Shown here: positions 1,016 through 7,390 of the stretch, in pieces
Position numbering within the stretch: the stretch's first letter is position 1
Layout: the number at the start of each line of letters is the position of its first letter
Virus record (IMG/VR): IMGVR_UViG_2698536395_000013
Length of the DNA stretch: 15,945 nucleotides
Reading direction: 5' to 3' (one strand)
Origin: a virus
Lineage: Duplodnaviria > Heunggongvirae > Uroviricota > Caudoviricetes
Position numbers and translations under genes: made by a program
The notes under the pieces: generated by a model
What the model was told of the DNA's origin: nothing
The model's input: the letters and a program-made list of their open reading frames with translations, nothing else
The model's database searches: none

Positions 1016-2098
1016 ATGAAAAAATTAACAGTGGCAATTTCTGCTGTAGCTGCATCAGTACTGATGGCGATGTCTGCTCAGGCAGCTGAAATTTATAATA
1101 AAGACAGTAACAAGCTGGATCTGTACGGGAAAGTTAATGCTAAGCACTACTTCTCCTCTAATGATGCAGATGATGGTGATACTACTTATGCCCGTCTTGG
1201 CTTCAAAGGTGAAACCCAAATCAACGATCAACTGACTGGTTTCGGTCAGTGGGAATATGAATTCAAAGGCAACCGCGCTGAATCTCAAGGTTCCTCCAAA
1301 GATAAAACCCGTCTTGCCTTCGCTGGCCTGAAATTCGGTGACTACGGCTCCATCGATTATGGCCGTAACTACGGTGTAGCATACGATATTGGTGCATGGA
1401 CCGACGTTCTGCCAGAATTCGGTGGCGATACCTGGACCCAAACAGATGTATTCATGACTGGTCGCACCACAGGTGTTGCAACTTATCGTAACAATGACTT
1501 CTTTGGTCTGGTTGATGGTCTGAACTTTGCTGCTCAGTATCAGGGTAAAAATGACCGTACTGACGTAACTCAAGCTAATGGTGATGGTTTCGGTTTCTCC
1601 ACTACTTATGAGTATGAAGGTTTCGGCGTAGGTGCAACCTATGCTAAATCTGATCGCACTAATAATCAGGTTATCTACGGTAACAACAGCCTGAATGCAT
1701 CTGGTCAAAATGCTGAAGTATGGGCAGCTGGTCTGAAATATGATGCGAACAACATCTATCTGGCTACTACCTATTCTGAAACCCAAAACATGACTGTTTT
1801 TGGTAAAAACCATATTGCCAACAAAGCACAAAACTTCGAAGTAGTTGCACAATATCAGTTCGACTTCGGTCTGCGTCCGTCCGTTGCTTATCTGCAATCT
1901 AAAGGGAAAGACTTGGGTGCTTGGGGTGATCAGGACCTGGTTGAATATATTGATGTAGGTGCAACCTATTACTTCAACAAAAATATGTCCACTTTTGTTG
2001 ACTACAAAATCAACCTGATTGATAAGAGCGATTTCACGAAAGCATCTGGCGTTGCTACCGATGATATCGTTGCTGTAGGTATGGTTTACCAGTTCTAA
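1016..2098 (+). CDS. nmpC: OmpC/OmpF-family general porin (NmpC/OmpD-like), 360 aa, intact
   Basis: Signal peptide [23 protein letters not shown] then [16 protein letters not shown], typical porin beta-strand periodicity, and a C-terminal ...VGMVYQF ending in Phe. AAAGGG SD before the ATG. Lies antisense between Q and the holin, as nmpC does in DLP12. Confidence 0.9.
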
Positions 2099-4195: not shown

Positions 4196-4288
4196 AAAAT
4201 CGCAGGTGCATTTCTGCATCTGTGACGGGAGAAGATAGTTTAGATTGTATGTGCGCATAAACGTCCCCGTTTAGCGCAGAAGTCACCG
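4196..4288. repeat. 93-bp direct repeat, copy A (left boundary of the inserted cassette)
   Basis: 4196-4288 aligns base-for-base with 6518-6610 with about 5 mismatches by my manual alignment. Contains the hairpin GCGCATAAACG-TCCC-CGTTTAGCGC. Confidence 0.85.
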
Positions 4289-4381
4289 GAGGAGTTCAAA
4301 CTCCGGTGACTTAATTATGACAAGTTGATTATTGAAAATCAAAAGTCATTTAAACAATAATGATACCCAGCAAGAGATTTC

Positions 4382-4783
4382 TTATTTTAACTCATAGATC
4401 AGACAGTCAACGATTTCTAAACCATTTACCATAGAATTAGAAACGCGAACTTTACCATCGTTGACTCTAGCAAATCCTTTTAACATTTTATAAACAAAAG
4501 CTGAATCCCCCTTAGCCTCAATTGCTTCTAATGGTATCGGCTTATACTTTTTTGATATGCTATTTCTATTTATCTCACTGATTTTTCTATATATTTCTGC
4601 CGGCCCACGTTCTGAGAAGTCACTGATAACTAAAATATATCTCCAAGATAGATCTGGGTAATAAAACCACATTGCAGCATCAATAGTTAAATTCTGTAAC
4701 TTGAGTTTTTTTAACAAAAATTGACCTGAGAATTCCATATCTTTTGTCAACTCTCTGCCGATTACCAGTGTGCTTTTACCCAT
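4382..4783 (-). CDS. hypothetical protein, 133 aa, partner of the upstream HEPN gene
   Basis: ORF with GGAG SD 9 nt before the ATG at 4783; overlaps the HEPN stop by 22 nt, so the two genes are likely co-translated. AT-rich coding sequence. No motif recognised. Confidence 0.55.
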   Translation of the reverse strand: MGKSTLVIGRELTKDMEFSGQFLLKKLKLQNLTIDAAMWFYYPDLSWRYILVISDFSERGPAEIYRKISEINRNSISKKYKPIPLEAIEAKGDSAFVYKMLKGFARVNDGKVRVSNSMVNGLEIVDCLIYELK

Positions 4784-5178
4784 TTCAAAACTCCAGAATT
4801 TTGGTCACCTACAGCATCAAACAATTGTTCGGCCATAGCTTTACTTATGTTATTGTCGTATCTAAATTGCTCGCTCCAGTCTTTAACGACCGACCAGTTA
4901 ATCTCCAACGAAACATCATTTTTTGCGTCAGCAATCAAAATTTGATGTAAGTTGGCAATTTTGAGAAGTTGCGACAAATCATGAGTATATGAATCATTTA
5001 CGACTTTTTTGTTTGGAAACTCATGTTGTAAAAATGACTTGGCAATACAGGCCTTCAATGCACATTCAACTGCATACCCACAAAGATAATATGCACCATG
5101 AAAAAAGCCATGATCAAGCAAGCATTTGGCCTCATTAAGCCTAGTGTCAGATAATGCTTCAAGGTCGTTTTTATTCAT
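4762..5178 (-). CDS. HEPN-domain protein, 138 aa
   Basis: Translation ...EAKCLLDHGFFHGAYYLCGYAVECALKACIAKSFLQHEFPNKKVVNDSYTHDLSQLLKIANL... matches the classic HEPN helical pattern (A.E.ALKA ... tHDL..Ll). No canonical R-x4-6-H is visible before the His, so catalytic status is uncertain. Confidence 0.65.
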   Translation of the reverse strand: MNKNDLEALSDTRLNEAKCLLDHGFFHGAYYLCGYAVECALKACIAKSFLQHEFPNKKVVNDSYTHDLSQLLKIANLHQILIADAKNDVSLEINWSVVKDWSEQFRYDNNISKAMAEQLFDAVGDQNSGVLKWVKAHW

Positions 5179-5477
5179 ACAATTATAACTTGAATTATCC
5201 TAATTTTTATGATTATACCCTTATCAGGTATGATGTAGGAACTGAAAACAATATTGGATATCATTTTCGGTATTTCTCTGCAAATTCCAGCCCACAGGAT
5301 CTCGGTGTACAATCTGTCGCTGATCGCGCAAATTTAGGGTCAATCACTTCATTTTTTGCATCAAACCCTCACTAACATCGAACGATTATAGTACAAGTAG
5401 TGTTCTTGACTTCTCATTAAACCGTCAGCATTCAATTAATTACAAAATACTAGCGGCATTTCTCTCCCGCAACTTTA

Positions 5478-6221
5478 TTACAGCCGTTCAGAACGTAAAT
5501 GCGTCAATACTCGACTCCACTTATCATCCTGCCACGGCCGGAATTTTACATGTGCCGTTTCTCTGGCAAGGATTGCCTGTGCCTTATTGAGTATCCGGGG
5601 ATATTCTTGTTCGATTGAAGTGAAGCGACCGGCTTCGCGGTGTTCTGCTACCTGAAGAAGCGGAGTGACGTTTTGGCAAGCGGTTAACATTGTGTCACTT
5701 GCCCGCCATAACCAAGCAAGTGTGCAAAGTTCGTTATCAGTGAATTGTTTTGTGATTGGGGATTGTTGAATTTCTCGATCGAGAATATCCAGCACCCAGC
5801 GGCGGAATTCTTTGGCCACAGGAGTGCGGGCGAACATGGCGATCAGATGGGCGCCACGGAGGGAGAAAATGCGAGTCTTCTTACGATAATTTCCTGAGGT
5901 CGTTGATTCGACGACCTGAGACATTCCGTCAGTAAACTCATCAATATTTTTGTTGTAGATGTCGGTTACTGCTTTGGTGCTGGCATATTTTAATGCTGCC
6001 GCCAATTCTTTGCTGGTAAACCAGATCTGGTTGTTGTGATTTATAGGAGTGAATTTTACATCGCGGAATGCGAGCTGAGTGACCATAGCGATAATCTCGT
6101 TTTGAATTTGAGCTATCACCACCGACGACGCCAATCGACTGGTGGTGGACTGTGCAAGGTTGGCGTAACCGGTCAAAACGAAATCCGGCGCTTCCGAAGA
6201 AGCCCTCACACAGCCCACCAT
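5478..6221 (-). CDS. Bro-N domain protein (Roi / antirepressor-like), about 247 aa; start uncertain
   Basis: Translation contains FRDVKFTPINHNNQIWFTSKELAAALKYASTKAVTDIYNKNIDEF, which resembles the Bro-N DNA-binding domain. Start chosen at MVGCV (ATG 6221) because the longer track ORF (to 6323) would read through an intrinsic terminator at 6249-6270. A later start at MVTQ (6089) is possible. Confidence 0.55.
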   Translation of the reverse strand: MVGCVRASSEAPDFVLTGYANLAQSTTSRLASSVVIAQIQNEIIAMVTQLAFRDVKFTPINHNNQIWFTSKELAAALKYASTKAVTDIYNKNIDEFTDGMSQVVESTTSGNYRKKTRIFSLRGAHLIAMFARTPVAKEFRRWVLDILDREIQQSPITKQFTDNELCTLAWLWRASDTMLTACQNVTPLLQVAEHREAGRFTSIEQEYPRILNKAQAILARETAHVKFRPWQDDKWSRVLTHLRSERL

Positions 6222-6360: not shown

Positions 6361-6517
6361 CCCTTGCATATGGGGGGCGCGATGATCACTACTACCACCA
6401 TAATCGCTCCAACTGTTGCAACTACTTTAGGCTAAGACATCACGATTTCCATATCACCTTTAGCCGCCAGACAAACAGAGACTCCCTGTTCTTGGCTGCC
6501 AAAAACACCGAATGCAA

Positions 6518-6610
6518 AAAATCGCAGGTGTATTTCTGCATCTGTGGAGGGAGAAGAGAGTTTGGATTGTATGTGCGCATAAACGTCCCCGTTTAGCGCA
6601 GAAGTCACCG
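6518..6610. repeat. 93-bp direct repeat, copy B (right boundary of the inserted cassette)
   Basis: See copy A; the two copies are 2322 bp apart. Similarity stops abruptly on both sides of each copy. Confidence 0.85.
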
Positions 6611-6838
6611 TAGTTGTTCATATTCTGATGACATGATAATTTCCTATTGAATAGAAAAAATTAACACGACTCATTCTTATGACTGGAAAAAGCAATCATG
6701 CTAATAATCATTGTTGTTCCAGTTCCAAATGCAGCGAAATAATCACCAATATTTTTTCTACCGGTTTCGACTTTGATGCTATATTCTGCTAACACCTAAC
6801 TAACACTACGTTTCACACAGCAATTACATGGAAATAAC

Positions 6839-7186
6839 ATGACTATCAAAGCGACTGACATAGAGATTCTTCATCGTTATGCTGAAGGGGTAATGGAACG
6901 TTCTAACCATCATGCAAAAAATGTTGGTGCAGCCGCTCTTACATTGCTAGGAGGTGTTATCTGGAAAGCCCTGCCCGGATCAATCGAGATAAGAACGTAT
7001 AACGGAAGTCTTGCAAATATGGTGTGGTGGCAAAGCGAAAGAACATTAAAAAATTATGCAATCTCATACAACCATAATTCATGTGAAATTGAAATGAGAG
7101 ATGAATCAGTCAAAGGTGCTGTATTATTTAGCATTTCCAACGAAACCACTCCAGAAAAAATATTATCACAGCTTTCTGAGCTTTAA
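6839..7186 (+). CDS. hypothetical protein, 115 aa, solitary plus-strand gene inside the minus-strand early-right operon
   Basis: ORF MTIKATDIEILHRYAEGVMERSNHHAKNVGAAALTLLGGVIWKALPGSIEIRTYNGSLANMVWWQSERTLKNY.... Very AT-rich gene and upstream region. Extended -10 TGcTATATT at 6777-6785. Followed by a hairpin at 7192-7209. No family recognised. Confidence 0.55.
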   Translation: MTIKATDIEILHRYAEGVMERSNHHAKNVGAAALTLLGGVIWKALPGSIEIRTYNGSLANMVWWQSERTLKNYAISYNHNSCEIEMRDESVKGAVLFSISNETTPEKILSQLSEL

Positions 7187-7191
7187 TTAAA

Positions 7192-7209
7192 GGCGGTGCT
7201 AACACCGCC
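7192..7209 (-). terminator. hairpin between the convergent 115-aa gene and P; candidate tR2-like terminator for the minus-strand operon
   Basis: 7-bp stem GGCGGTG/CACCGCC with loop CTAA. On the minus strand it is followed by UUUAAUUAAAG; on the plus strand there is no T-run. Confidence 0.4.
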
Positions 7210-7390
7210 CATACCATTACTCCACATCTTACGCAACTTGATAATTATGCTCTATTAAATACCCACAATATTTCATCAATGCATGGGTCAGCTACAAAAT
7301 GTTTACCGTGGTAATTCCTGTTTTCGCAACATCTCAAAAGAACAATAAACACTGTATTTCTTCAAGTAACGAAGAATCTTTCTTTGCCCG

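Follow-up and report, generated by a model that had tools for sequence, protein, structure and literature searches.

A HEPN-domain gene and its overlapping partner form a conserved two-gene unit, a candidate toxin–antitoxin or abortive-infection pair, in prophages of Shiga-toxin-producing Escherichia coli

Introduction

HEPN RNases are among the commonest effectors of toxin–antitoxin, abortive-infection and CRISPR systems. RnlAB has its toxin gene ahead of the gene for a non-enzymatic antitoxin, and the toxin, RnlA, is a multi-domain protein with the canonical HEPN motif. RnlA/RnlB, like LsoA/LsoB, consists of a HEPN RNase toxin and the small protein antitoxin that neutralizes it, and works as a phage defence (PMC8266594). 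The type VII HepT/MntA systems (Shewanella SO_3165/3166 and the HEPN/MNT pair of Aphanizomenon) combine a DUF86 HEPN protein bearing an Rx4HxY motif with an AMPylating minimal nucleotidyltransferase (MNT). Here we analyze a gene pair that can be compared with both arrangements: a gene for a 138-aa HEPN protein and an overlapping gene for a 133-aa partner, at positions 4,382 to 5,178 of IMG/VR record IMGVR_UViG_2698536395_000013. This 15,945-nucleotide stretch of Caudoviricetes DNA is referred to below as the window. An earlier reading of the letters and open reading frames (ORFs) alone, which we call the sequence-only reading, had proposed the two genes as a candidate toxin or abortive-infection pair.

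Two further groups of HEPN systems are relevant. Within the HEPN-T clade, the normal companions of which are MNTs, the AF0298-like proteins and AbiV keep the arginine of the Rx4-6H motif and lose its histidine; a possible alternative active site was proposed for them, to which an acidic residue of helix 2 and a second strongly conserved histidine, supplied by the helix 2-3 insert, would contribute (Anantharaman et al. 2013, PMC3710099). AbiV of Lactococcus belongs to a two-component system of which the second component acts as an RNA (type III). HEPN effectors are also carried by prophages as single genes. HepS of Gifsy-1 is a validated solo defence protein encoded in an accessory region equivalent to the one described below (PMC13043305), and Tha of S. 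aureus prophages and gp57r of Butters are solo abortive-infection proteins. HepS and gp57r carry the canonical Rx4-6H motif.

Results

The gene pair

Both ORFs and their 22-nt overlap lie where the sequence-only reading had placed them. That reading had not given a strand; the genes are on the minus strand, and RefSeq annotates the same coding sequences. The pair and its local signals are as follows.

4762..5178, minus strand: HEPN gene, 138 aa, ATG start; WP_001038620, 'HEPN domain-containing protein' in RefSeq (from the ORF listing)
4382..4783, minus strand: partner gene, 133 aa, ATG start; WP_000520500, 'hypothetical protein' in RefSeq (from the ORF listing)
4762..4783, minus strand: HEPN/partner overlap, 22 nt (read from the sequence)
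4791..4794, minus strand: GGAG Shine-Dalgarno sequence of the partner, 7 nt ahead of the partner ATG and within the HEPN coding sequence
5212..5217, minus strand: perfect TATAAT, candidate −10 box, 33 nt upstream of the HEPN ATG
5242..5237, minus strand: weak −35-like GTTCCT, upstream of the TATAAT

The HEPN protein

The 138-aa protein had been called HEPN from two motifs, ECALKACIA and YTHDLSQLLK, both of which are present in it, and profile and structure comparisons uphold the call. The protein matches Pfam PF05168 over residues 12-118 with 27.8 bits (gathering score 22; E=3e-6), a precomputed PF05168 annotation is present on most of its relatives, and it matches phrog_5737 with 318 bits. 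An AlphaFold2 model built from 40 relatives is all-helical, with a predicted local distance difference test score (pLDDT) of 93.5. When this model was compared with the PDB by Foldseek, the top matches were the HEPN proteins ST0689, TT1696, TM0613 and AF0298 (1wol, 1ufb, 1o3u and 2hsb; probability 0.99-1.0). Together with 2q00, these top five matches have probabilities of 0.97-1.0 and template-modeling (TM) scores of 0.48-0.62, but their E-values are weak (0.06-0.6). No sequence relatives of the protein or of its profile were found among solved PDB structures. The 138-aa protein belongs to the HEPN superfamily and, within it, to the HEPN-T clade (PF05168).

The sequence-only reading had also remarked that the R-x4-6-H motif is missing, which is literally correct, since the histidine is absent, but the arginine is kept. 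In an alignment of 40 sequences, Arg106 is invariant and no histidine follows it at a distance of 4-6 residues, the family consensus being SRYxxxxS; the invariant positions include R13, E38, K42, H66 and R106-Y107. In the model, E38 lies in helix 2 (residues 26-47), H66 is part of the helix 2-3 insert (residues 48-67), and R106 closes helix 3 (residues 103-107), ahead of the loop that leads to helix 113-124. These positions agree with those of the acidic residue, the alternative histidine and the motif arginine described in PMC3710099. Because the AF0298-like/AbiV variant is accepted within the HEPN-T clade, membership stands despite the missing Rx4-6H motif. The protein looks like a potentially active variant rather than a dead domain, and from the alignment and the model we propose E38, H66 and R106-Y107 as a putative alternative site. 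A literature search found no test of the alternative Arg/His site for this HEPN family.

The partner protein

No match for the partner was found in Pfam, NCBIfam or PADLOC, and its sole match in PHROGs is phrog_5760, to which no function is assigned there. A word-seeded search returned only 32 close relatives, all from Enterobacteriaceae and Acinetobacter. When 1.84 billion cluster representatives (50% identity) were searched with a profile, 808 relatives came out at E<=0.001, the top 150 of which are 92-192 aa long, mostly ~125-150 aa. Database names for the relatives are 'hypothetical protein' throughout, and 60 diverse members gave no consistent match to a Pfam or PADLOC family. Across these 60 members, W39, W47, G60 and Y130 are invariant, G20, L23, L27, Y65, R113 and D126 are nearly so, and the C terminus carries the motif R..N..(I/V)NG..I.D..IY. 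The AlphaFold2 model of the partner (pLDDT 93.8) has the topology a1-b1-b2-a2-b3-a3-b4-b5. The sequence-only reading would have failed if the 133-aa ORF were not translated. Its conservation as a protein across 808 clusters, its confident model and the GGAG that precedes its ATG by 7 nt show that it is a real gene.

The same reading had held that the partner is not an obvious MNT, as it lacks a GS...DxD motif, and every comparison made agrees. The motifs hG[GS] and [DE]x[DE] occur in no member of the 60-sequence alignment, none of the 60 members matches a nucleotidyltransferase Pfam family even at E<=0.1, and hhalign of the partner profile against an MNT alignment, two members of which were confirmed as PF01909/PF18765, gave a probability of 0.09%. 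The partner was therefore rejected as an MNT, having no motif, Pfam or profile support. No sequence relatives of the partner or of its profile were found among solved structures, and Foldseek found no significant match to the partner model in the PDB; in its ranking, uS3 KH-like, BolA, RimP and EscJ folds stood above MNT (rank 23, probability 0.21). Judged from the model, the a1-b1-turn-b2-a2-b3-a3 portion could match the MNT core, with Trp39 and Trp47 at the places of GS and DxD, and the partner may descend from a dead MNT. Pfam and a fold search of the PDB revealed no DNA-binding domain (helix-turn-helix, ribbon-helix-helix, AbrB or Phd) in HEPN or in the partner.

Pairing and distribution

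HEPN relatives are encoded at at least 582 loci in 185,579 species genomes (one genome per species), and 80 of these loci were kept for analysis of their neighbors. The 80 loci span ~14 phyla, including Bacteroidota, Gamma- and Betaproteobacteria, Desulfobacterota, Acidobacteriota, Verrucomicrobiota and Chloroflexota, as well as Chlorobiota, Nitrospirota, Planctomycetota, Spirochaetota, Latescibacterota, Poribacteria and Methylomirabilota. The partner lies immediately 3' of the HEPN gene, on the same strand, at all 80 genome loci and on all 42 viral contigs examined (122/122 HEPN-seeded loci). Conversely, look-ups seeded with the partner found the HEPN gene upstream in seven of seven cases, and the HEPN-first order that the sequence-only reading had pointed out thus holds from both directions. 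The pairing of HEPN and partner is obligate and ancient. At one locus (L143, 1700-2520) the upstream HEPN gene had not been called: there is no standard start codon where one would be expected, yet the profile matches with 2e-57. Such a gene-caller miss means that counts of 'orphan' partners taken from called genes would be inflated.

The module is mainly chromosomal, occurs in many phyla and is phage-borne only occasionally: 42 viral contigs compare with 582 or more genome loci. Conservation does not extend to a third gene, the largest neighbor cluster having 4 of 292 members. Among 150 immediate neighbors, no Pfam family appears more than 3 times; the majority are housekeeping genes, AAA_15/AAA_21 and antitoxin genes turn up now and then, and PIN, HicB and Fic genes surround some loci. 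Small co-oriented overlapping genes, constant co-occurrence, a patchy distribution and variable neighbors together correspond to the generic architecture of type II-like toxin–antitoxin systems. Such a pattern is characteristic of a mobile addiction or immunity module of two genes rather than of a defence-island system.

The two proteins differ in how fast they diverge. Median pairwise identity is 48.5% for HEPN and 34.3% for the partner, HEPN is the higher of the two in 98% of pairs, and the divergences correlate (r=0.70), as would be expected for an effector with a co-evolving inhibitor. Two loci (L038 at ~4060 and L048 at ~4140) have an in-frame stop in HEPN (GAY*L and KKV*QYDFP) beside an intact partner, which we regard as weak evidence for toxin loss.

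In E. coli, an intact single copy with >=99% identity is present in 190 of 5426 complete genomes, mostly those of Shiga-toxin-producing O26, O103 and O157 strains. One of these 190 copies belongs to another prophage, from O157:H7, which has a Stx-phage-like layout and a SIR2 gene as well as the pair. The slot between the replication and nin genes is common to E. coli, Klebsiella and Citrobacter prophages; those of Acinetobacter carry the pair between the lysis genes and the integrase. The only deposited phage genome with the pair is that of Klebsiella phage Kp4864-1.

The overlap and the region upstream

The partner ATG is built on the conserved Trp133 codon of HEPN (A-TGG), and the terminal TGG-TAA of HEPN is read in the partner frame as ..CTG-GTA-A, that is, Leu-Val. 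Exactly this 22-nt overlap was found at 64 of the 70 loci with an assignable start, which come from diverse phyla, and it is the same in enterobacterial, Acinetobacter and metagenomic copies. The dual-coding junction explains the conservation of L6-V7 in the partner and of the W..KxxW C terminus in HEPN. The sequence-only reading had taken the overlap of a single copy to imply coupled expression; an overlap so fixed strengthens that argument, and translational coupling of HEPN and partner is predicted from it.

Two other explanations of the junction were considered and rejected. The partner is in the −1 frame relative to HEPN, but the overlap has no X_XXY_YYZ slippery site, which argues against a programmed −1 frameshift fusion; the partner's own ATG or GTG start, plus the GGAG in the window copy, also opposes frameshifting. 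An apparent HEPN–partner fusion in a Bryobacterales metagenome-assembled genome sequenced by nanopore (L091, 4000-4777) is due to a single inserted T, probably a read error.

About 75 nt upstream of the HEPN ATG are kept in Klebsiella and other enterobacterial copies, in which the proteins are 75-85% identical. This conserved stretch (5180-5260, minus strand), which includes the TATAAT, comprises a block, GGGTATAAT, followed by an AT-rich leader (ACATAATTCAAGYTAG..). A strict promoter scan made no call at the 5212-5217 TATAAT, and no obvious Shine-Dalgarno sequence was seen for the HEPN gene. The conserved stretch and its TATAAT suggest that a promoter travels with the cassette, which could then be expressed in the lysogen, and the 5180-5260 stretch could be a cassette promoter plus an operator or leader.

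Comparison with described systems

The HEPN protein shares its PF05168 family, its fold and its closest solved structures with the HEPN proteins of HEPN-T/MNT pairs (AF0298-like, TM0613, TT1696 and ST0689). With the AF0298-like proteins it also shares the variant site, in which the motif arginine is kept, the histidine is lost and a second histidine lies in the helix 2-3 insert. Both are small two-gene operons, and the HEPN side here belongs to the clade that normally has MNT companions. The difference lies in the partner, which by motif, Pfam and profile comparison is not an MNT. The distance from HepT/MntA is greater: the Rx4HxY motif is absent (only R106-Y107 is conserved), the catalytic residues of a nucleotidyltransferase are absent, and the gene order is reversed, since HEPN came first at each of the 122 loci found from HEPN and in each of the 7 look-ups made from the partner, and the MNT-first order was never encountered. 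For these reasons, neutralization of the AMPylation type is unlikely.

By analogy, the logic of the module appears most like that of a HEPN toxin with a protein antitoxin, as in RnlA/RnlB. Neither protein here has a sequence match to any solved structure in the PDB, which presumably holds RnlA/RnlB. HepS, Tha and gp57r resemble the HEPN protein of the window in being prophage-borne HEPN effectors, but they are single-gene systems, whereas here the motif is a variant one and the two genes form an obligate unit. HepS in particular is a precedent for function, but it has no detectable relationship to this protein and is a single gene with the canonical motif. AbiV structures are among the low-ranking Foldseek matches of the HEPN model. 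In contrast to the RNA component of the AbiV type III system, however, the partner shows conservation of its amino-acid sequence and has a confident fold prediction, and neither an RNA family nor a tandem repeat was found with it.

In PADLOC, the HEPN protein has a weak match (E=1.8e-7, 29.7 bits) to the PDC-M28A model, which also has 138 positions. PDC-M28 is a three-gene candidate cassette (FAM_01482>>FAM_02546>>FAM_01036) embedded in BREX, DISARM or type I restriction-modification systems. Identity with PDC-M28 was rejected because the partner and 60 of its relatives match no PDC-M28 model and there is no third gene. Literature searches for the two protein accessions and for PDC-M28 returned nothing. 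In the portion of the DefensePredictor supplementary text consulted, the HEPN-containing systems do not include this pair; DS-28 there is a different HEPN pair, of a 163-aa and a larger protein. The sequence-only reading had suspected an uncharacterized pairing, and we found no description or name for this conserved HEPN/partner unit in the databases or literature searched.

Genomic setting

Over 1.2 kb around the pair, the window matches the chromosome of E. coli O26:H11 str. 11368 and many other Shiga-toxin-producing strains with 100% identity. In the annotated O26:H11 record, a tRNA-Arg gene and fimZ adjoin the host lambdoid prophage. The early-right operon, on the minus strand, runs through a cro-like gene, ydaT, two replication genes, a Bro-N/P22AR-C antirepressor-like gene and HEPN, and continues with the partner, orf33, ybcN, ninE, ybcO, rusA, ylcG and Q. 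The HEPN/partner pair occupies an accessory slot between the replication and nin genes of this lambdoid prophage. Three features define its surroundings.

4346..5477 (approximate), no strand: low-GC island with the cassette (33-37% GC against ~51% in the flanks, from the composition profile)
4280-4312 and 4314-4342, minus strand: perfect 12-bp inverted repeat, AAGTCACCGGAG / CTCCGGTGACTT, and promoter-like TTGATT-17-CATAAT just upstream of the repeat
5478-6086, minus strand: antirepressor-like gene with Bro-N and P22_AR_C domains, directly upstream of the pair

According to the RefSeq annotation, the island is placed between the antirepressor-like gene and a phage-82-type orf33-ybcN-ninE-rusA-Q module. 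Its right-hand boundary is the inverted-repeat region. Phage 82/lambda-like backbone homology starts again at 4262-4345, and the inverted-repeat and promoter region at 4280-4342 is ~85% identical to the stretch upstream of orf33 in phage 82, for which record X92588 annotates putative −35/−10 signals and a 'possible regulator-binding site' (12-bp inverted repeat). Searches of the island found no significant match to an Rfam family and no tandem repeats, and an RNA antitoxin or other non-coding RNA in the island was rejected on those grounds.

Several other features of the window were observed in passing. A mechanical ORF listing extends the antirepressor-like gene to 6323 from a TTG, which is probably the wrong start, and a pseudogene remnant is annotated nearby, at 6503-6580. 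A second low-GC stretch (~38% GC, 6500-7300) contains a 115-aa ORF at 6839-7186 on the plus strand, opposite to the early-right operon. It matches Pfam PF18315, 'integron cassette protein VCH_CASS14' (5.7e-20), has no PADLOC match and is probably another moron without an assigned function. Between the lysis cassette and Q lies a prophage-borne ompC-like porin gene of 360 aa (1016-2098, plus strand), named porin OmpC in RefSeq.

Discussion

Every part of the sequence-only reading that sequence analysis can address held up. Our results support, with moderate confidence, a model in which a HEPN RNase effector acting through R106, H66 and E38 is restrained by a coupled, non-enzymatic partner, and the two are carried by prophages as cargo for addiction or abortive infection. 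The 138-aa protein would be a small, dimer-type HEPN RNase that serves as effector or toxin, with catalysis by an alternative Arg106/His66/Glu38 site instead of Rx4-6H. The overlap of 22 nt would couple translation of the partner to that of HEPN, and the partner would most likely bind the RNase directly and so keep it inactive, much as a type II antitoxin or an immunity protein does; lacking transferase residues, the partner would not act by nucleotidylation. In the prophage of Shiga-toxin-producing E. coli (STEC), the cassette would be a moron that occupies the replication-nin accessory slot and has a promoter-like region of its own. There it would stabilize the prophage, abort infection by competing phages once the partner was lost or displaced, or both.

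The gene structure, the HEPN fold and family, the strict co-occurrence, the overlap, the mobility of the pair and its lack of annotation are direct observations; RNase activity, the identity of the toxin, inhibition by binding and a role in phage defence are what the model would add to them. Several of our findings weigh against the model. The canonical catalytic histidine is absent, and RNase activity rests on a site proposed from comparison of sequences and structures. Most type II and type VII systems have the opposite gene order, and by their rule HEPN, being encoded first, would be the antitoxin. The isoelectric points of the window copy, 9.3 for the basic partner and 5.8 for the acidic HEPN protein, are the opposite of the usual toxin–antitoxin pattern, although across the family isoelectric points do not discriminate between the two roles. 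Finally, defence genes are not enriched among the neighbors, and PADLOC does not recognize the pair.

The main rival is a sensor–effector form of abortive infection, in which HEPN is inactive by default until the partner, as the specificity subunit, recognizes a phage protein and switches the RNase on. There are precedents among the solo prophage systems: HepS and gp57r reportedly lack toxicity at rest, phage tail proteins trigger HepS and Tha, and gp57r escape mutations map to minor tail proteins. Faster evolution of the partner than of HEPN would also suit a sensor engaged in an arms race, and the partner has no DNA-binding domain of the antitoxin type. We nonetheless think this mechanism unlikely, as most copies are chromosomal, beside housekeeping genes and outside prophages or defence islands, and the fixed coupling with its near-1:1 design is typical of an inhibitor–effector pair; HEPN nonsense mutants with an intact partner, too, better fit the loss of a toxin. 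It is improbable, in our view, that the pair has no part in conflict and instead consists of a HEPN nucleotide- or RNA-binding module and a KH-II/BolA-like partner, an RNA-binding or RNA-processing pair with a regulatory function that hitch-hikes on prophages. Such a function is hard to reconcile with so patchy a distribution (at least 582 loci in 185,579 species genomes), with low-GC prophage copies that are 99-100% identical across STEC lineages, with the lack of a conserved neighborhood or with the catalytic-type residue set that HEPN keeps.

The roles could also be reversed, with the 133-aa protein as the toxin and a HEPN protein without Rx4-6H as a non-catalytic antitoxin encoded first. 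The putative antitoxin would then be upstream, as in most type II operons, and the missing canonical histidine and the isoelectric points of the window copy would fall into place. Yet it is HEPN that is the more conserved protein and has the invariant polar residues R13, E38, K42, H66 and R106, whereas the invariant positions of the partner are mostly hydrophobic (W39, W47, G60 and Y130), with R113 and D126 as the only charged ones; the nonsense mutations are in HEPN and not in the partner, and the trend in isoelectric point fails across the family. Taken together, these observations make a reversal very improbable. Less credible still is a degenerate HepT/MntA system of type VII, in which a diverged minimal nucleotidyltransferase would modify HEPN, for example at the invariant Tyr107. 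The partner family has no hG[GS]/[DE]x[DE] motif and no nucleotidyltransferase Pfam match among its 60 members, an MNT comes only 23rd in the Foldseek ranking, the hhalign probability is negligible, and the gene order is reversed.

A wider proposal may be made, which we offer as a tentative one that may well prove wrong: that the partner family (at least 808 clusters, ~14 phyla) consists of dedicated inhibitors or sensors of an alternative-site HEPN RNase, and that the pair is a new and widespread toxin–antitoxin or abortive-infection family. Within this proposal, the partner may descend from a dead MNT and neutralize by binding where MNTs AMPylate. The toxin would come first with a hard-wired 22-nt coupling, and prophages of STEC, Klebsiella, Citrobacter and Acinetobacter would have captured the module as anti-phage cargo.

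To our knowledge, the known small-protein regulators of HEPN RNases are essentially MNT enzymes and RnlB-type antitoxins. The pair would add a third kind, an unannotated partner family tied strictly to one HEPN lineage in distant bacteria. It would also offer a tractable test of catalytic activity at the AF0298-like Arg/His site, an idea proposed in 2013. The interest of the finding lies in the size of the unannotated partner family, in the strict pairing with its hard-wired overlap and in the fact that the pair can be tested directly in STEC prophages. As the cassette is intact and 99-100% identical in prophages of 190 of 5426 complete E. coli genomes, it may affect prophage maintenance, superinfection and susceptibility to phage therapy in these pathogens.

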